Part shown: in pieces, positions 7,061-35,679 of the stretch
How the letters are laid out: every line of letters begins with the position of its first letter
Position numbering within the stretch: position 1 is the first letter of the stretch
From: a virus
Taxonomy: Duplodnaviria > Caudoviricetes
Direction: 5' to 3' (one strand)
IMG/VR virus record: IMGVR_UViG_3300028275_000007
Length of the DNA stretch: 64,000 nucleotides
The notes under the pieces: model-generated
Told to the model about the DNA's origin: nothing
Databases searched by the model: none
The model's input: the letters and a program-made list of their open reading frames with translations, nothing else
Program-made: the position numbers and the translations under genes

Positions 7061-7765
7061 TTACTTCCTTAATTCAGCTATCCTTAAAACTCTAAACAAA
7101 CTTAACCACATCCAACCAATGTCAAACTCAAACCATCGACGGCTTAGTTTAGGACTTGCTGGGCTAAGGTGATGATTGTTATGAAGCTCTTCCCCACCAA
7201 TGATAATACCCCAAGGACTAATATTGCGACTACGATCATTGCTAATTCCGTTTTTATATCCATACCAATGTCCTACTCCGTTGATAACTCCTGCTGCCCA
7301 GAAAGGAATCCAAAGCATTTGTATACCCCAAACTACTAGTCCTACAGGTCCAAAAAGAACAAGGTCTATGACCAACATTAAGAGAATCCCCCAGCGACTG
7401 TGTGGGGTATACAAATTACGTTCGATCCAATCATCCGGAGTACCAACTCCGTATTGTTGAATCATTTCAGAATCTTTACTTGCAGTATGATATAATACAG
7501 CACCTTTAAACAACACACGCCAAATACCGTATACGTGCGGACTATGCGGGTCGCCTTGTTCATCACTAAATCTGTGATGCTTACGATGTATCGCCACCCA
7601 TTGTTTTGTGACCATACCAGTAGTAAGCCATAACCAAAAACGTATTAGATGTTCAAATATAAAATTAAAGGTTATGCCTCTATGAGCCTGTCCACGATGC
7701 AGGTATAGTGTGACGCACACTATTGTGATGTGCGTCATCACTAACGTTGCTAAAATAATTTCCAT
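7061..7765 (-). CDS. membrane fatty-acid (delta-9 acyl-CoA type) desaturase
   Basis: His boxes HRGQAH, HRKHH, HNNHH plus TM segments. Confidence 0.9.
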   Translation of the reverse strand: MEIILATLVMTHITIVCVTLYLHRGQAHRGITFNFIFEHLIRFWLWLTTGMVTKQWVAIHRKHHRFSDEQGDPHSPHVYGIWRVLFKGAVLYHTASKDSEMIQQYGVGTPDDWIERNLYTPHSRWGILLMLVIDLVLFGPVGLVVWGIQMLWIPFWAAGVINGVGHWYGYKNGISNDRSRNISPWGIIIGGEELHNNHHLSPASPKLSRRWFEFDIGWMWLSLFRVLRIAELRK

Positions 7766-7772
7766 CTAATAT

Positions 7773-8981
7773 TTAGTGGAACTGATCTGCCTCTGTGCTG
7801 GACTTATTAGCAACTGTTGATGTAGCACCAACTGCTTCACTAATCAAATCAAAGTAACCAACGCCAACTTCACGTTGATGTTTAACTGTTGTAAAGCCAC
7901 GAGCCTGTGCTTCAAACTCACGCTGTTGCATTTCTGAATACCCAGCCATACCACGTTGTTTATAGGCTTCTGCTAATTCAAATGTAGCAAGGTTAACTGA
8001 ATGGAATCCTGCTAGTGTAATGAACTGAAACTTATAGCCTAACGCACCTAATTCACGTTGGAATGTTTCACATTCTTCAATGCTTAAAAACTTTTGCCAA
8101 TTAAAACTAGGACTGCAATTATAAGCAAGCATTTGATCAGGATACTGGGCACGGATCGCTTCAGCAAACTTTCTAGCCTGTGCGATATCAGGTGTGCTAG
8201 TTTCGAACCAAAGGAGATCAGCGTAAGGGGCATAAGCAAGACCTCTGCTAATACAAGCATCAAGCCCGTTTTTAAATTTGTAAAAGCCTTCGTCAGTGCG
8301 TTCATCAATAATAAAGTCCTTGTCCAATGGATCGTGATTGCTGGTAATAAGTGTAGCAGACTCTGCGTCGGTACGTGCCATAATAACTGTTTCTACTCCT
8401 GCTACATCGCTAGCAAGACGTGCGGCCTGTAGGTTACGAATAGCTTGGCTAGTGGGAATTAAAACCTTACCGCCTAAGTGTCCACATTTCTTTTCGCTAG
8501 ATAGTTGATCTTCAAAGTGTACGCCTGCGGCGCCTGCTTCGATCATAGCCATCATAAGTTCATATGCGTTTAATGCGCCACCAAAACCTGCTTCTGCGTC
8601 AGCTACAATTGGCAAGAAATAATCTGTTGTTAAATTGCCTTCACTGTGTTCGATTTGATCGGCACGACGGAACGCATTATTGATTTGCTTAACGATTGTG
8701 GGCACTGAATTTACTGGATATAAACTTTGATCAGGATATGTTTGTCCTGCTGTATTTGCGGCTGCGGCCACTTGCCAGCCTGATAGATAAATTGCTTTGA
8801 GTCCTGCTTTGGCGTGTTGTACGGCTTGTTGGCCGCTGTACGCTCCTAGCGTGTTAACGTATGGTTCTGTTGCTAGTAACTCACGTAGTTTGGTTGCACC
8901 ACGTTTGGCTAAAGTATGCTCAATTTGTAATGAGCCTTGTAACTTGCGGACTGTGTCTTGTGTGTAGTTGCGCTTCTTCAT
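7773..8981 (-). CDS. aceA: isocitrate lyase
   Basis: KKCGHLGGK active-site loop, [33 protein letters not shown]. Confidence 0.97.
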
Positions 8982-9085: not shown

Positions 9086-9673
9086 ATGAAAGACAAAGTA
9101 ATACTCACTGACGCCGATGGCGTTCTACTAGATTGGGAATGGGCATTTGATGTTTGGATGCAGGAACACGGATTCAAACGTCAAGAAGGTAGCCAATTTG
9201 TTTATAGCATTGGTAAACGCTACGGTATTGATATGGAGCAGGGCAAGAAGCTGATTAAGATTTTTAATGAATCTGCTCATATGGGATTTTTACCTGCCCT
9301 ACGTGATGCTCAACATTATGTAAAACGCTTACACGAAGAACACGGTTATGTATTCCATTGTATCACTAGCCTAAGCAAAGATCGTAACGCTCAAAAACTA
9401 CGTAAGATGAATATGCGTAAGTTGTTTGGTGAAACTGCATTTGATAAGTTTATTATCCTAGACACAGGTGCAGACAAAGACGAAGTGTTAGAACAATATC
9501 GTGGGACAGGCTGCTGGTGGATTGAAGATAAAATCACCAATGCCGTCGCTGGTCATAACGTAGGACTAAAACCTCTGCTTATGGAACACGGTCACAATAT
9601 GGATTTTGAACACGCAGAAATTCCAAGAGTTCAATCCTGGAAAGACATTTACGAAATTATCGTAAACGGTTAA
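9086..9673 (+). CDS. HAD-family 5'(3')-deoxyribonucleotidase-like phosphatase
   Basis: DADGVLLDW motif I, WIEDK motif IV; sigma70 promoter TTGACA 9027 / TATAAT 9050. Confidence 0.8.
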   Translation: MKDKVILTDADGVLLDWEWAFDVWMQEHGFKRQEGSQFVYSIGKRYGIDMEQGKKLIKIFNESAHMGFLPALRDAQHYVKRLHEEHGYVFHCITSLSKDRNAQKLRKMNMRKLFGETAFDKFIILDTGADKDEVLEQYRGTGCWWIEDKITNAVAGHNVGLKPLLMEHGHNMDFEHAEIPRVQSWKDIYEIIVNG

Positions 9674-10280
9674 CAAAATCTAACAGTAACTGATAATGAG
9701 TACCTTGATGCCAATGCGGCTCAAGGTATTTTTTATCATACCACCACTGTTCGCTTTCTGGATGGCAACCTATTAGTCCGATATTCTTTTGCACAATCGC
9801 CATAGGATCACTATTGCTATAGCTAGCCACAACGTCCATATTATTCCCAACAAATGCACAACCGTCATAGAAATACATCCTTTCAAAATTGTCTAGCCAC
9901 TTCACTGGCATTGCTTTAGGGTGGGGTCTTCTAGTGCAGGTATTGGGACGTTTGATATATTGTGTAACCTCAACGTTATCTAATAAATCAAAATAGTCTG
10001 GGCCGGCCCAATACGCTCCCATACATATTCCTAAATACTTTCCGCCATTGCTAACGAAGTGTTTTACAGCATCATAATTCCATTTTACTAATGTATCAAA
10101 TCTGTCTGCATCTCCAAAGCCTCCTGGAAAGCATACACAGTCCACATCATCAAAGAAAGTGGTTTCTACTTCGTCTTTGGAGAATAATTTAAAAGAATGT
10201 TGGGGGGATAATGCTTTTATAATTCCATTAGCTGAATCAACTGCGCAAACAGGTTGATGTATGAATAAAGCAATTTTCAT
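9657..10280 (-). CDS. class I glutamine-amidotransferase-like protein (BPL_N-like)
   Basis: FPGG, GGKYLGICMGAY nucleophile elbow, HPE. Confidence 0.8.
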   Translation of the reverse strand: MKIALFIHQPVCAVDSANGIIKALSPQHSFKLFSKDEVETTFFDDVDCVCFPGGFGDADRFDTLVKWNYDAVKHFVSNGGKYLGICMGAYWAGPDYFDLLDNVEVTQYIKRPNTCTRRPHPKAMPVKWLDNFERMYFYDGCAFVGNNMDVVASYSNSDPMAIVQKNIGLIGCHPESEQWWYDKKYLEPHWHQGTHYQLLLDFVNRLR

Positions 10281-10295
10281 TGGACAAAATGTAAA

Positions 10296-10392
10296 TGCTC
10301 ACTTAGGGGACCATTCCGGGGCACGACTCCCATAATCCCCTGCCCAGCAGCCGGGCCACCCAAAGTAACGATAACGTCCTAAGGTAGGGTGT
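10296..10392 (-). ncRNA. candidate structured RNA (unassigned family)
   Basis: GC-rich intergenic island with stems CACCC/GGGTG, GCCCGG/CTGGGC, AGGGGATTAT/ATGGTCCCCT and a possible CTTA/TAAG pseudoknot. Confidence 0.55.
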
Positions 10393-10394
10393 TT

Positions 10395-11516
10395 TTAATT
10401 GCCTTCGCGATCTCTTTCGACTCTAAGTTGTTCTCTATGAATACTTGGATGTCTTTCAATAACTCTACGAATAGCATCTTCTTCGCTTTCTGCTTCAATA
10501 CGAGCTGTTCGTCCATTTTGAAGAAGTGTAACTATAAACATTCCGGGACCTTCTTCAGCTGGCTCATCTTCTTTCTTCTCTGGTTCAGATGCATATGAAT
10601 ATGGCAATCTAGATTTAATGTCTGCAATTGCTTTATCAATGTCGTAACCGTCTGGAGTTATATCTTTAGAATTCTGCTTGATTTCTTCTGCTTTAGATTT
10701 CATAGCAGCGATAATTTCTTTAAGCAATCCGGGGAATAGTTCAGCAAACTTTTCATCTCCACGGCTATAACTCAACGATTGATTACCGTTGTTCATCTGT
10801 CCTGTTGGGGCGTGCATCTGCCACTTACCGTTTACATCGTCTTGATTTTGTTTATCAACAATACTAACGATAGGACCTTCTGGAGCATAGCGTTCAAACC
10901 AACGTAGACCTGAACTAGATCCTGTACAGAAACTTGCCTGATAACCTTCGGAGTTATTGAATGTATAACAAGCACCGTAGTTGTAAGGTAATGTTACTAG
11001 GAAACGATCATTGTTGATCAATATAGATTCTTTCTTTTCACGCTTATGTTTCTCAATAACTTCAGCATCTTTAATCTTACGTAATTCGTCTCGGTATTCT
11101 CTAGTCTGTACAATTGCTTGAATCTGGCGTAGATTTTTAAAACGATTAAAATCCTGATGCGGCTCTTTGAGCTTACCGCGTATACTTAGAGCTTTCCAAG
11201 CACCTAGGGCATCCCCACCTTCACCGTTGATATCCTCATAGTCTACTACACCGTTCATATAAAGACGTGTCAACCAATCGTCAAACTTACCGTCTTGTGA
11301 AAGGTCGCCGTAGTCTGTTGAACGAAGTGATGTATCTAATAGTTCACTCCATAGTTGTAAAATTGCTTGATCGTCTGGTTTAGGACCTAACTTAGCAACC
11401 TTATCTTTTGGTAATGTGCTGTCGTGACGCATTGCAATTCCAAGCATCTTAACAGTCTTTGGATCTTTTAATTTTGCCGCAATGTTGGCTTCTAATACGA
11501 TTTGATCTAGTTTCAT
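10395..11516 (-). CDS. hypothetical late protein with capsid-targeting-like leader
   Basis: MKLDQIVLE|A; FCTG..WFERY..GPIVSIVDK..KWQMH segment. Confidence 0.7.
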   Translation of the reverse strand: MKLDQIVLEANIAAKLKDPKTVKMLGIAMRHDSTLPKDKVAKLGPKPDDQAILQLWSELLDTSLRSTDYGDLSQDGKFDDWLTRLYMNGVVDYEDINGEGGDALGAWKALSIRGKLKEPHQDFNRFKNLRQIQAIVQTREYRDELRKIKDAEVIEKHKREKKESILINNDRFLVTLPYNYGACYTFNNSEGYQASFCTGSSSGLRWFERYAPEGPIVSIVDKQNQDDVNGKWQMHAPTGQMNNGNQSLSYSRGDEKFAELFPGLLKEIIAAMKSKAEEIKQNSKDITPDGYDIDKAIADIKSRLPYSYASEPEKKEDEPAEEGPGMFIVTLLQNGRTARIEAESEEDAIRRVIERHPSIHREQLRVERDREGN

Positions 11517-12388
11517 CCTGTTATCAAAGCCCTTTTAAAGAATGAAAGAACTGCTCCAAGCTTCTTTTGATCTCCACCGGCAATGTCTTTTAATAATTGT
11601 TGTGTGCCTTCTGAACGTTGGGCACTAAATCTACTACCATAACTTTTTGTTATACTACCAGTCTGTTCTGGATAATAATGACTTGCGGCCATTAACACCG
11701 AAACGTTAATAGCATTAGTAACAAACTCTGGCGTAACATCTTCGCCTGCTTCTAATGCTTCTAATCCGCTTTGCAGTTTACTTACGTGATTAAGTTTCTT
11801 TTGTGCTTTTTCAAACGCATCGTTCTTGATCATATTGGCCACGTGACCTTTAACGTCTGCTATGGCCGCTGTGGTAGCACGAATCCACATTGGGCGAAAT
11901 TTTTTAACTAGAGTTTCTTGTGTAACTTCTTGTGTGCCGCCGGCGCCTTGTTGTGCATCTGCACGTTTGCGCTGTTTATCAGTGACTGCTCTAGTGTTCT
12001 TGCCCACATAAAACTTTTGTAGCTTACCAATTTTTGATTTTAAGAAATCTAGAATATTTCCGCCACGACCGTCTGATGTAGTGTCAATCGGGCCACCGCT
12101 ACTGGCAACTGCATCATAGGTACCGTTACGTCCGGATTTAATAGCTCCGGTACCCTTGGCTCCTTGTATAATAACCCAGGCACCTTCATAGGCATTTTTT
12201 AAATCGCTCCAAGATATTTTATCTACTGGACGATATCCAATATCGTGTGCAAGTTTTAGGTCTTTGTGTAGAGCCTGAACTACTTCTTTACCGCCAGGCT
12301 GTCCGGCAATAAGATTCATAGAAGTACTAGCTTCGTCTAAGTGTCCTTCTAAAAGTTGGGCAAATATTTGGTAAGATTCTGGTCGCAT
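11513..12388 (-). CDS. hypothetical late protein
   Basis: Likely start MRPESYQIFAQLLE, TAAATA immediately upstream. Confidence 0.7.
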   Translation of the reverse strand: MRPESYQIFAQLLEGHLDEASTSMNLIAGQPGGKEVVQALHKDLKLAHDIGYRPVDKISWSDLKNAYEGAWVIIQGAKGTGAIKSGRNGTYDAVASSGGPIDTTSDGRGGNILDFLKSKIGKLQKFYVGKNTRAVTDKQRKRADAQQGAGGTQEVTQETLVKKFRPMWIRATTAAIADVKGHVANMIKNDAFEKAQKKLNHVSKLQSGLEALEAGEDVTPEFVTNAINVSVLMAASHYYPEQTGSITKSYGSRFSAQRSEGTQQLLKDIAGGDQKKLGAVLSFFKRALITG

Positions 12389-12395
12389 AATATAT

Positions 12396-13196
12396 TTATT
12401 TGCATTTAGCTCGTTTTGCATTAGTCAAAGCACCAAAATCTACGGGCCATTCTTGCCCTGGTGCCAGCTCTTTGGCAGTACCTGGAAAACCAAATACAAC
12501 ATTTGCTTCTGCTTGAATATCGCGTATAGCAGTTCTAAATTTAGTTAGGTCGTTGCCTAGGTTGCCGTAGGGAGCACCGTGTGGAAATCTCCAACCTGCC
12601 ACAGCGCCTGTTTGTTGATCAACAACGATCTTATAGTAAGCGTGTGGAACTATAACTCCGTTACCGATGTATTTGTCACCAGCGCCATATATAGCCCCAA
12701 CGTATACGGTAAACGGGCGGTTCTGTTGAAAGGCCCACCCACGCACGGAAGTTTCCAGTAACTTCCAAATCCCACGATTTAGGCTCCCGTGTTGGGGATA
12801 CATATTCGTCATCAAAAAACTTTCGTACTCTACTTGTTGACTCCAGCTCATATCCCCGTCCGGTGCTGCATGGCCCTTGTCGTAGCCAGTCCCAGCATAG
12901 TCCGACGGGGTCGCTCCGTTTGGGACTGATTTGTCCGCAACAAAAGCATCTGTTCTAGGAAAACAACCTAGAGCATTTTGTGGCAATAATGTGTAGCTTA
13001 CATAAGCAGGAATCTTAACAGGAGCATCATAGCCTACTAGATATGCTTCTCTGCAAATAGGCTGTATCTGACGTACAGTCTGTGCCCATCCATAGGGGCT
13101 GTGTACTTTGCAGGCATCAACTGGTAGTGGAGCACGTTGTTCCCAAGCAAATGCCTGAGAAGTAAAAAGTGCTAATATAATTAAAAATTTATTCAT
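12396..13196 (-). CDS. secreted DNA/RNA non-specific endonuclease (NucA/Serratia type)
   Basis: Signal peptide MNKFLIILALFTSQAFA|W; YDKGHAAP, TNMYPQ..LNRGIWKLLE. Confidence 0.9.
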   Translation of the reverse strand: MNKFLIILALFTSQAFAWEQRAPLPVDACKVHSPYGWAQTVRQIQPICREAYLVGYDAPVKIPAYVSYTLLPQNALGCFPRTDAFVADKSVPNGATPSDYAGTGYDKGHAAPDGDMSWSQQVEYESFLMTNMYPQHGSLNRGIWKLLETSVRGWAFQQNRPFTVYVGAIYGAGDKYIGNGVIVPHAYYKIVVDQQTGAVAGWRFPHGAPYGNLGNDLTKFRTAIRDIQAEANVVFGFPGTAKELAPGQEWPVDFGALTNAKRAKCK

Positions 13197-15969: not shown

Positions 15970-16011
15970 TTGATAATCTCCGATCTAATATTTAGCGTAA
16001 ATACAGTTACT

Positions 16012-17220
16012 ATGATAAACAAAGAACCCTTCAAACATTTAATAAAAGATCTAAAATCTAACGGAAAATATCGTGTGTTTAACGACATTCTTCGTGAAAA
16101 CGGCAAGTTTCCACAGGCTATTTGGTACGGACCGTATGCCATTAAAAATATAGTTAATTGGTGTTCTAATGATTATTTAGGTATGGGTCAATCTAAAGTT
16201 GTTTTAGATGCTATGCACACAGCTCTAGATATGACTGGTGCTGGTTCGGGAGGTACTCGTAATATTGGCGGCACTAGCCACTATCACGTTGCTCTAGAAC
16301 ACGAACTAGCAAAATTACATAATAAAGCCAGTGCTCTTTTGTTTAGCTCTGCGTATGTTGCCAACGAATGGACATTGATTGCTCTAAGTAAGATCATTCC
16401 TAATATACATTTTGTCAGCGACGAAAATAATCATAACAGTTTAATCATAGGTATGAGTCATAGTCGTGCTTCTAAGACTGTGTTCAAACACAACGATCTA
16501 CAACATTTAGAAGATATACTGTGTTCAGTAAAGTTAGCTGGTCAGACTCCGTGTATTGTGTTTGAAAGTGTTTACTCAATGGACGGAGATGTAGGGGAGA
16601 TAAAAGGAATCTGTGATCTAGCAGACAAGTATGAAGCAATCACTTATATTGATGAAGTACACGCGGTAGGGCTATACGGAACGCACGGTGGCGGCAAAGT
16701 TGAAGAGCTAGGCCTTGAACACCGAATTGATATAATCAATGGAACTCTAGGCAAGGCGTATGGTGTCCAAGGTGGCTATATAGCTGCCGATGCTGATGTA
16801 ATTGATGCTATTCGTTCAGTGGCAGCTGGATTTATCTTTACTACAAGTCTAAGTCCTGTTACCTGTGCAGGTGCTCTTGCTGCTGTCAAATACCTAAAAG
16901 AGCACAACGAGATTCGTGAGAAACATCAAGAACGTGCTCGCAAACTAAAACATAGATTGAACAATAACGGTATTCCAGTTATGGAATGTTCTACTACTCA
17001 CATAGTGCCGGTACTGATAGGGGAAGCTAAGAAGTGTAAGGCCATTAGCGATGACCTACTCAACGAACATAATATCTATGTGCAGCCTATTAATTATCCA
17101 ACTGTCGATGTAGGCACAGAACGACTACGGTTTGCACCTACACCGTTTCACGATGACGGAATGATTGAAGACTTAATCGCTGCTCTCAAAGAAAGTTTTA
17201 GTAAATTTGATTTGAAGTAA
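16012..17220 (+). CDS. hemA: 5-aminolevulinate synthase (PLP, Shemin C4 pathway)
   Basis: [52 protein letters not shown]. Confidence 0.92.
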
Positions 17221-27579: not shown

Positions 27580-27664
27580 GCGACTGTGGTGAAATAGGTA
27601 GACACAAGGGACTTAAAATCCCTCGCAGCAATGCATACCAGTTCGATTCTGGTCAGTCGCACCA
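27580..27664 (+). tRNA. tRNA-Leu(UAA)
   Basis: GCGACTG/CAGTCGC acceptor, anticodon loop CTTAAAA, long variable arm, GTTCGAT T-loop, encoded CCA. Confidence 0.95.
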
Positions 27665-27671
27665 TTTAAAT

Positions 27672-27748
27672 CACGCATTAGCTCAGTTGGATAGAGCAAC
27701 AGCCTTCTAAGCTGTGGGTCAGGGGTTCGAATCCCTTATGCGTGGCCA
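27672..27748 (+). tRNA. tRNA-Arg(UCU)
   Basis: CACGCAT/ATGCGTG acceptor, ACAGC-CTTCTAA-GCTGT, GGTTCGAATC, CCA. Confidence 0.95.
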
Positions 27749-27752
27749 GTTA

Positions 27753-27830
<78 letters not shown>

Positions 27831-33281: not shown

Positions 33282-34367
33282 ATGTCAAAGCAAGTAGATG
33301 TTTCCGTTCGCCAAGTTGGTCCTAAAAACGCCAAGAAGGCAATTCGTAAGGCGGTCAATGTTCGCCGTCCAGTGTTCCTGTGGGGTCCTCCAGGCATTGG
33401 TAAATCCGATCTCGTCAAGCAGATCGGTGAAGACGCAGGTCGTGAGGTCATCGACGTCCGCCTAGCACTTTGGGAGCCCACCGACATCAAGGGTATTCCT
33501 TATTACAATGCCGATCAAGGCAAAATGACTTGGGCTCCTCCTGCAGAACTGCCTGTGGACCCAGATAGCAAGGCAATCATCTTCTTGGATGAATTGAACT
33601 CTGCTCCTCCTGCTGTTCAGGCCGCGGCCTATCAGTTGATTCTGAACCGTCGTGTTGGTACCTACGAACTGCCTAAGGGTGTTGACGTAGTCGCCGCTGG
33701 TAACCGTGAAGGTGACCGTGGTGTTACCTACCGTATGCCTGCTCCGCTGGCTAACCGTTTCGTTCACTTGGAAATGAAAGTGGACTTTGATGACTGGCAA
33801 GACTGGGCTACCTTGAACAAGGTGCATCCAGATGTCGTAGGTTATGTAGGCTTTGCCAAGCAAGACCTGTATGACTTCGATCCTAAGAGCCCTAGCAAGT
33901 CATTTGCTACTCCTCGTTCTTGGATGTTCGTTTCTGACCTGCTCAGCGACGACGATGTTGACAACGAGACTTTGGCTACCCTGATTGCGGGTGCCGTTGG
34001 TGACGGTCTGAGCAATAAGTTTATGGCTCACCGTAAGATCGCAGGCAAACTGCCTAAGGCAGAAGACATTTTGGATGGCAAGGTCAAGGACCTGCAGATC
34101 AAAGAAGTGTCTGCGATGTATTCGTTGACTGTTTCACTCTGCTACGAGTTGAAAGACCGTGCTGAGAAGAAGGTCAAGGACTGGGACGGTATGGCAGATA
34201 ACTTCTTTGCCTATATGATGGCTAACTTCCCAACAGAGTTGGTTGTTATGGGTGCAAAGACTGCTCTTACTAACTACGACCTGCCCCTGGACGCTACTAA
34301 GATGAAGTCGTTCGACGAGTTCCACAAGCGTTTCGGCAAGTATGTTCTTTCAGCAATGGAGAATTAA
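33282..34367 (+). CDS. MoxR-like AAA+ ATPase
   Basis: WGPPGIGKS, FLDELN, AAGNR, PLANRF, TPRSW. Confidence 0.9.
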   Translation: MSKQVDVSVRQVGPKNAKKAIRKAVNVRRPVFLWGPPGIGKSDLVKQIGEDAGREVIDVRLALWEPTDIKGIPYYNADQGKMTWAPPAELPVDPDSKAIIFLDELNSAPPAVQAAAYQLILNRRVGTYELPKGVDVVAAGNREGDRGVTYRMPAPLANRFVHLEMKVDFDDWQDWATLNKVHPDVVGYVGFAKQDLYDFDPKSPSKSFATPRSWMFVSDLLSDDDVDNETLATLIAGAVGDGLSNKFMAHRKIAGKLPKAEDILDGKVKDLQIKEVSAMYSLTVSLCYELKDRAEKKVKDWDGMADNFFAYMMANFPTELVVMGAKTALTNYDLPLDATKMKSFDEFHKRFGKYVLSAMEN

Positions 34368-34384
34368 GACCTCGCCCATTGCGG

Positions 34385-34415
34385 GGGTGTTGTAGAAATA
34401 CAACACCCTTTTTTT
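34385..34415 (+). terminator. intrinsic terminator
   Basis: GGGTGTTGTA-GAAA-TACAACACCC plus T7. Confidence 0.9.
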
Positions 34416-34473
34416 ACGGTTGACGCATTGGATTTCCGGTGCTATAATATATACATACTAAGGAGAGCGACTT

Positions 34474-35679
34474 ATGGATCCAATCGTTGAGAAACTAACT
34501 ACTGCACGAGTAGGCCTGCTTTTGAAAGCACCCTTCTTCGGCAATATGGCCACCCGTATGCGTTTGATGGACGCTTCAGACTGGTGCCCTACCGCGGCAA
34601 CTAACGGCCGTGACTTTATGTATAACAAGGACTTCATTAACAAACTGTCTGTTAAGAAGTTAGAGTTCCTGCTGGCACACGAGATCTGCCACTGCGTTTT
34701 TGATCACTTTGGTCGCGTAGGTTCACGTGATCGTATGCTGTCTAACATCGCACAGGACTATGCCGTAAACCAAATCCTTGTAGACGAACGCATCGGTGAG
34801 AAGATCACCGAGGTTAAGATCTGCTACGATCCCAAGTATCGTGGTATGGCTTGGGAAGAAATCTACGATCAATTGTATGAACAAGCAGAGAAGATCCCTA
34901 TGGATCAACTGCTGAAGCAATTGGGTGACCTTTTGGACGAGCACATTAAAGAAGAAGAAGGTGCTGGTAGCCCTGGCGACAAGACCAAAGACGGCAAAGA
35001 GAAGCCTACGCTCAGTAAGGAAGAAGCTGAGAAACTGCGTCAAGAGATCAAAGAGGCTATGATCCAAAGTGCCGCGGCCGCTGGTGCAGGTAAGACTCCT
35101 GCGGGCATTATGCGTATGATCAAGACTATGACTGAGCCTAAAATGGACTGGCGCCAATTGGTTCAGCAAGAGATCCAATCTATTGTGCGTAATGACTACT
35201 CATTCGCTCGCTACAATCGTAAGAGCCAACACTCAGGTGCGGTGCTTCCTGGTATGAAAGAAGCAACTACCATTGACGTGGCTATTGCAATCGATATGTC
35301 GGGTTCGATCGGTGAAGAGGATGCAACTGTATTCCTTTCTGAGATCAAAGGCATTATGGATCAATACGAGGACTTCAAGATCAACCTGTGGTGTTTTGAC
35401 ACAGAGATCTACAATCACCAAAGCATCAGCCACGACAACGCTGAAGACTTGGTTGAGTATGAACCTCAAGGTGGCGGTGGCACAGACTTCGATGTCAACT
35501 TTACCTTTATGGAAGAGAATGACATTCGCCCTAAGAAGTTCATTATGTTCACAGACGGCTATCCCTGCGGTAGTTGGGGTCCTGAGGACTACTGCGACAC
35601 AATCTTTATCGTTAAAGGTAACACATCTGCTCAAGCACCCTTTGGTCAGACTGTTATCTACGAAAAGGAAACGGGCTAA
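34474..35679 (+). CDS. DUF2201-type metallopeptidase plus VWA domain protein
   Basis: TAATNG, AHEICH (HExxH), NIAQDYAVN, IDMSGS MIDAS, GGGTDF, FTDG. Confidence 0.88.
   Translation: MDPIVEKLTTARVGLLLKAPFFGNMATRMRLMDASDWCPTAATNGRDFMYNKDFINKLSVKKLEFLLAHEICHCVFDHFGRVGSRDRMLSNIAQDYAVNQILVDERIGEKITEVKICYDPKYRGMAWEEIYDQLYEQAEKIPMDQLLKQLGDLLDEHIKEEEGAGSPGDKTKDGKEKPTLSKEEAEKLRQEIKEAMIQSAAAAGAGKTPAGIMRMIKTMTEPKMDWRQLVQQEIQSIVRNDYSFARYNRKSQHSGAVLPGMKEATTIDVAIAIDMSGSIGEEDATVFLSEIKGIMDQYEDFKINLWCFDTEIYNHQSISHDNAEDLVEYEPQGGGGTDFDVNFTFMEENDIRPKKFIMFTDGYPCGSWGPEDYCDTIFIVKGNTSAQAPFGQTVIYEKETG

Follow-up and report, generated by a model that had tools for sequence, protein, structure and literature searches.

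Among described RNAs that act by base pairing, CopA/CopT and RNA I/RNA II are loop-initiated antisense RNAs, and base-pairing sRNAs derived from 3' UTRs also exist. snoRNAs pair with pre-rRNA, either as box C/D and H/ACA guides or as chaperones (U3, snR10 and snR190), and rRNA-pairing elements carried on mRNAs occur in eukaryotes (the calicivirus TURBS and the 3' CITEs of plant viruses). To our knowledge, no snoRNA-like RNA of this kind exists in bacteria, and among the natural RNAs of bacteria and phages none is known to us to regulate ribosomes through pairing with 23S rRNA. The SAM/SAH riboswitch (RF01727) contains hairpin-loop and 3'-tail pseudoknot words superficially similar to those of the element described here. 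Among phage factors, phiKZ014 is a protein that, early in infection, binds 5S rRNA at a site away from the interface (PMC10914614), and the PeSL cassettes of T4-type phages are multicopy units of a single terminator stem-loop and a sigma70 promoter (PMC2839356). A PNA directed against 23S rRNA helix 69 (H69) blocks translation according to Kulik 2017, as cited in PMC12828698.

The window analysed here (the whole stretch of 64,000 nucleotides) is part of a large T4-like phage present in river samples, and carries an RNA element that, in its conserved unpaired bases, is antisense to helices 67-71 of 23S rRNA. The first-pass annotation had described an unexplained structured RNA, possibly a stand-alone sRNA, a description that stands; the complementarity to 23S rRNA, the main feature of the element, had been overlooked.

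Fold, distribution and genomic context

The sequence and coordinates of the 97-nt element had been given exactly, and its GC-richness was borne out (58.8% relative to 41.2% for the window, within the top 0.5% of 97-nt windows). The gap from its end to the ATG of the GATase-like gene at 10280, first put at about 16 nt, is 15 nt. A search with the RNA model found the element as the sole copy within the window. The proposed Rfam check (Rfam 15, covariance-model search) gave no match at the gathering threshold and no ordinary known family even at E up to 10, ARAGORN reported neither a tRNA nor a tmRNA at the element (no cloverleaf, no tag reading frame), and BLAST against GenBank phages returned chance-level matches only. 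As had been remarked, there is no U-tract; the element is not the single GC hairpin followed by a U-tract that characterises an intrinsic terminator. Its single-sequence folding energy was not above chance relative to shuffles (z -0.77), and the structure therefore had to be derived from homologs, which resolved three serial hairpins (P1, P2 and P3) and a pseudoknot joining loop 2 to the 3' tail, supported by covariation:

10296-10392, minus strand: entire RNA element, with three hairpins and the loop 2/tail pseudoknot (88.7 bits, RNA model)
10387-10391, minus strand: 5' strand of P1 (homolog stem analysis)
10357-10361, minus strand: 3' strand of P1 (homolog stem analysis)
10342-10356, minus strand: P2 hairpin, 4 bp, with two-sided changes at all four pairs
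10346-10352, minus strand: loop 2, 7 nt, 5' strand of the pseudoknot, pairing with the 3' tail
10305-10341, minus strand: P3, a long hairpin with an internal loop and variable sequence (fold and homologs)
10297-10303, minus strand: 3' tail, pseudoknot partner of loop 2 (covariation)

Across the homologs, the stems of the element covaried, including its P1, inner hairpin and P3 stems. Two details of these stems had to be amended: the inner P3 hairpin has a loop of 8 nt (AGUCGUGC), and the GCCCGG-CUG-CUGGGC hairpin covaries, not as 6 bp with a CUG triloop but as 4 bp with a 7-nt loop. A P1 stem of 4-8 bp could be formed in 153 of the 157 listed homologs, with varied sequence; it contains loop 1 together with, in longer forms (the window copy among them), an extra hairpin (P1b), and in minimal forms of the family the P1 domain has shrunk to a 9-nt loop. 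For the loop 2/tail pseudoknot, 97.7% of cells were paired, three of the five pairs showed two-sided changes and slid registers reached at most 50%, and in the most distant members loop 2 and tail had been jointly swapped for unrelated complementary words. The CUUA/UAAG pseudoknot proposed earlier was abandoned, UAAG being found in 18 of 186 listed sequences while CUUA is near-invariant. Read on the minus strand, the anchored stem positions contained many G-U pairs and almost no A-C pairs, and these G-U pairs identify the minus strand as the RNA strand. A sense-strand rRNA mimic was ruled out by this pattern together with the co-orientation of the element with upstream genes.

Homologs were collected by scanning IMG/VR with four patterns and by one further scan anchored on a protein, all counts referring to the matches listed, and comprised at least 166 distinct full members (at least 186 with another parser) from uncultured large aquatic phages. 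Loop 1 was fixed in three of the four collection patterns, which biases the collection towards apparent loop-1 invariance; in a scan with loop 1 released, it was still present in genuine members. The element is usually single-copy per contig: with the RNA model, 20 long contigs each gave one strong copy; complete or near-complete genomes (339-365 kb) were among them, and one genome held a second, decayed copy. A remote look-alike on the minus strand of another contig (L670, G424:C1:117820-117913) had a one-base insertion in loop 1, a different loop 3 and a weak model score (E 0.006). No copy was found with the RNA model in a sample of 151 genomes of one Burkholderiales family, searched without a positive control, and a bacterial-genome scan with an overly loose pattern gave 120 chance matches, none with the family layout. 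River metatranscriptome contigs, which carry no ends, strand or level, contained the locus and the element copies of several relatives. The family is a real and widespread phage RNA, apparently undescribed as such, and a literature search for an rRNA-complementary phage RNA of this type found no description. It may figure, without a name, among the 8,495 IMG/VR candidates of Fremin et al. 2023 (PMC10690425); main-text passages of that article on viral csRNAs make no mention of rRNA complementarity.

The genes around the element, and a late promoter box upstream, were as follows:

10395-11516, minus strand: upstream ORF of 373 aa without a Pfam match, its stop 2 nt before the element start; not a constant partner
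9657-10280, minus strand: BPL_N/GATase-like ORF downstream of the element, adjacent to it only in one clade
12393-12399, minus strand: T4-like late promoter box, separated by 4 nt from the ATG at 12388

Among the listed homologs the element was flanked by about 49 upstream and about 49 downstream gene clusters. Its core lay 3-22 nt past a stop codon in 113 of the 139 listed homologs with an upstream ORF, and the next start followed after 3-90 nt. Only 17 of 147 listed homologs, mostly from the search with that protein, were followed by the GATase-like gene; most relatives of the protein lacked the element, and in a complete 365-kb genome the two were more than 85 kb apart. A late-promoter-like box was present 3' of the element in 62 of 166 listed homologs (control 2.7%), so that the element often lies outside the transcript of the next gene, and directly 5' of it in about 12. 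A -35-like word downstream of the element was found in 56 of 166 listed homologs (20% in controls), and a separate terminator after it in 4 of 166. The varied neighbours, the proximity to stop codons and the positions of the late boxes suggest a relocatable RNA gene placed at the 3' ends of late transcripts, and not a leader. In the window, the late box at 12393-12399 is the probable promoter of the element-bearing transcript, which may be leaderless, given the distance of only 4 nt between box and ATG.

Elsewhere the window encodes auxiliary metabolic genes (a fatty-acid desaturase, an isocitrate lyase and an ALA synthase-like class I/II aminotransferase; 7061-8981, minus strand, and 15970-17220, plus strand), a cluster of tRNA-Leu(UAA), tRNA-Arg(UCU) and tRNA-Met(CAU) (27580-27830, plus strand), a MoxR-like AAA ATPase adjoining a DUF2201 metallopeptidase/vWA gene (33282-35679, plus strand) and an AlgH-like (DUF179) phage gene (23864-24508, minus strand).

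Complementarity to 23S rRNA

The invariant loop was recognised as the reverse complement of 23S H69-H70, and this complementarity was then tested on fetched rRNA sequences. Three segments of the window copy were antisense to 23S rRNA:

10376-10387, minus strand: arm 1 (loop 1), 12 nt perfectly antisense to 23S 1922-1933, its core near-invariant in the family
10365-10387, minus strand: extended arm 1, including P1b and GUUAC, 22 of 23 nt pairing with 23S 1910-1933
10321-10328, minus strand: loop 3 (arm 2), with UCGUGC antisense to 23S 1964-1969

In E. coli numbering, 23S 1910-1933 comprises the loop and 3' strand of helix 69 and the H70 junction. With P1b opened, the duplex of extended arm 1 at this site was calculated at -29.3 kcal/mol (-21.3 +/- 2.2 for 60 shuffles, the best of which reached -28.3), making it the best site in 16S plus 23S by 8 kcal, at a cost of 6.6 for opening the element's own domain; the co-fold of element and target gave -76.3, compared with -60.0 for the separate folds. 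The longest perfect antisense runs of the window element were 12 nt, one of them at 23S 1922-1933, a length that alone is modest since 49 of 2000 shuffles reached it anywhere. The window loop-3 match covers 6 nt only and has equally good matches elsewhere in rRNA. Loop 2 was also complementary to 16S 518-527 and 23S 1070-1076; pairing of loop 2 with the 16S 530 loop, and of loop 2/tail with the 23S GTPase centre, was ranked low, variants losing the match and keeping the knot.

Across the family, the element core was antisense to 23S 1921-1930 in 166 of 166 listed homologs, 23S 1901-1940 was the best arm duplex site in 16S plus 23S for 149 of them, and a GUUAC-type word occurred in 121. Loop 3 fell into classes defined by target, with 111 listed members directed to 1929/30-1937, 48 (the window copy included) to 1964-1969, four to 1968-1976 and three, weakly, to 1938-1943. 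The largest class abuts the loop-1 target and, like the 1968-1976 class, makes 8-10 perfect pairs. The loop-3 words came from searches that left loop 3 free and constitute non-circular evidence; the chance of an 8-mer match within 80 nt is 0.0012. The independent recurrence of loop-3 targets within one junction is the strongest indication of pairing. A CUA that extends arm 1 over 1931-1933 was present in 43 of the 48 members without loop-3 cover of these positions relative to 12 of the 111 with cover, in a comparison that ignores kinship. Conserved substitutions that break pairs were seen opposite A1928 (U to C, six listed members) and opposite A1936/A1937.

Distant members carried a further arm to 23S 1826-1836, the partner strand of H67. 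One member (L448, 6560-6660, minus strand) held five antisense arms to 23S domain IV, all in one junction, and was without the standard pseudoknot tail. In another (L479, 3100-3210), 23 nt were perfectly complementary to a helix-69 variant with a U1909:A1921 pair, which occurs naturally in at least 120 metagenome contigs; this is a single event, the changes also preserve the member's own stem, and its phage has terminase- and portal-like neighbours, unlike the T4-like hosts of the family. L479 also complements an H67 variant found in a few natural rRNAs. The target was identical in the rRNAs fetched for E. coli, Burkholderiales, Sphingomonas, Bacteroidota and cyanobacteria, and in nearly all listed proteobacterial matches; it differs in Mycobacterium, Actinomycetota diverging at 1921-23.

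Some further observations concern individual members and contigs. In one subclass (L162, L257, L404, L445, L446, L466, L474 and L493) an internal complementary copy, with the H67 arm next after it, can sequester loop 1, possibly representing a locked state. A second, diverged copy in a complete 353-kb genome (L669:600-760, G406:C1:76939-77018) had a degenerate loop 1 and a loop 3 that pairs with 23S 1927-1936 over 10 nt. Four of the 23S rRNA contigs (L541-L660) diverge immediately past U1931, probably because an intron sits in the middle of the target.

Candidate modes of action

The computational evidence that the family targets the intersubunit core of 23S rRNA is strong, and physical pairing of the element with 23S rRNA, in one form or another, is likely. 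On balance we favour a trans-acting, pseudoknotted antisense RNA that would bind host 23S rRNA at H68-71 of the immature or free 50S subunit; put more broadly, the odds lean slightly towards a snoRNA-like, multi-armed RNA of large phages that invades the 23S intersubunit helices and controls 50S maturation or subunit joining. The RNA would be made at the 3' end of a late message, or from its own promoter in the roughly 12 homologs directly behind a late-promoter box, and the three hairpins and the pseudoknot would make up a stable scaffold whose 3' end is protected. Loop 1 would seed on 23S 1921-1930, the weak P1 domain would open to let pairing spread over helix 69 (1910-1933), and loop 3 would clamp a neighbouring strand of the H67-H71 junction. 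Immature or free (split) 50S would be the likely target because the H67-H71 region is undocked or disordered in late 50S precursors, where H68, H69 and H71 are flexible (PMC11260487), and in subunits split by mycobacterial HflX, where H68-71 remain disordered (PMC11831132). With H69-H71 kept open, docking and subunit joining would be blocked, and late in infection 50S particles might be parked or directed towards turnover. Because a lytic phage depends on ribosomes, the benefit of inhibition is not obvious, and the outcome could instead be chaperoning or protection. The ICL search gave no host identity.

If true, this would add an RNA route to the phage takeover of translation, with a viral RNA acting on the ribosome core by base pairing as a natural counterpart of anti-H69 oligonucleotide antibacterials. 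It would also offer a way to probe H68-71 docking, the last step in 50S folding, and illustrate how antisense arms come to be displayed in evolution against a target that is both structured and universal. Testing would not require phage culture, since E. coli has the identical target.

The support for other explanations descends roughly from a cis tether, through a relic just above a guide, to a ribozyme and a riboswitch. A cis-acting 3'-UTR element would pair with the same rRNA region while on the mRNA and catch the 50S subunit released at the upstream stop, which would be recycled onto phage messages or aid re-initiation. The location of the core 3-22 nt past a stop codon in 113 of 139 listed homologs and the eukaryotic viral precedents fit such a tether, but tight spacing is normal for phage genomes, about 12 listed homologs lie directly behind a late-promoter box, and a single copy per genome behind unrelated genes fits an RNA gene better; we regard it as unlikely. 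It is doubtful that the element is a relic scaffold of captured antisense-strand rDNA with loops now read by protein or tertiary contacts: L448 and L479 do resemble mosaics of reverse-strand domain IV, and antisense copies of helices self-fold into hairpins, but divergence has been free in the paired regions, whereas the unpaired antisense words are kept exactly, and swapped loop-3 words, dissimilar but directed to the same target neighbourhood, are hard to explain without pairing. A guide or trans-ribozyme, in which arm 1 would set an H69-H70 site for cleavage or modification (by a phage protein, a host protein or the RNA itself) with loop 3 as anchor, would explain why majority-class loops read a continuous target (1922-1937) and meet at G1930, like two-armed guides. 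It appears rather improbable in view of four loop-3 target sites across the family, an arm-1 register that slides up to 3 nt, the lack of a constant neighbour gene and the absence of an RNA-modifying enzyme among about 40 window proteins scanned.

The compact intergenic pseudoknot might also belong to a self-cleaving ribozyme, either HDV-like or of a new class, with a role in processing late transcripts. This is very unlikely: no Rfam ribozyme matched and no known fold fits, the nested double pseudoknot P1-P2-P3-P1.1-P4 could not be drawn across the homologs, which have serial hairpins and one knot, the strand 3' of P2 lacks a conserved 5' partner, and the position corresponding to the catalytic J4/2 nucleotide is U in 68, C in 39, A in 33 and G in 15 of 155 listed homologs. 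The least credible reading, to which we give almost no weight, is that the downstream gene is controlled by a metabolite riboswitch, of a glutamine or SAM/SAH-like type. The GATase-like gene that follows the element in the window, and a loop 2/tail knot resembling the SAM/SAH aptamer, would be in keeping with the riboswitch-like leader of the first-pass annotation, an idea that did not survive the comparison of homologs: there are 49 downstream clusters, 62 of 166 homologs have the late box on the 3' side of the element, the next start is 3-90 nt away, the GATase-like gene is an inconstant neighbour, the knot bases covary freely, and the element has no Rfam match at E 10.

Comparison with described systems

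The element would act in the manner of a loop-initiated antisense RNA or a snoRNA chaperone, but it does not have the full defining features of snoRNAs or of any riboswitch, ribozyme, terminator or PeSL class tested. In contrast to the SAM/SAH riboswitch, it has no model match, no link to metK, a freely covarying knot and two extra domains. With PeSL cassettes it shares an intergenic structured element, a putative promoter that often follows and variable neighbours; it differs in being multi-helix, pseudoknotted, rRNA-complementary and single-copy, where PeSLs occur in many copies per genome. Like phiKZ014, it would be a large-phage factor aimed at the 50S subunit, though an RNA, predicted to act against interface helices and present in late transcripts. 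The anti-H69 PNA acts on the helix predicted as target here, likewise in an antisense mode, but is artificial and unstructured. The resemblance to CopA/CopT, RNA I/RNA II and 3'-UTR-derived sRNAs lies in a short structured RNA, recognition by exposed loops and an origin at the 3' end of mRNAs, whereas the predicted target is rRNA rather than an mRNA or primer, the arms number two to five, and the 3' end is pseudoknotted without a terminator. Unlike eukaryotic and archaeal snoRNAs, the element is encoded by bacterial viruses, with no C/D or H/ACA boxes among the conserved columns of the alignment and no Nop or Cbf5 partner seen; like them, it carries antisense elements to rRNA, in the form of several short arms to functional regions, and plausibly acts on an assembly intermediate.
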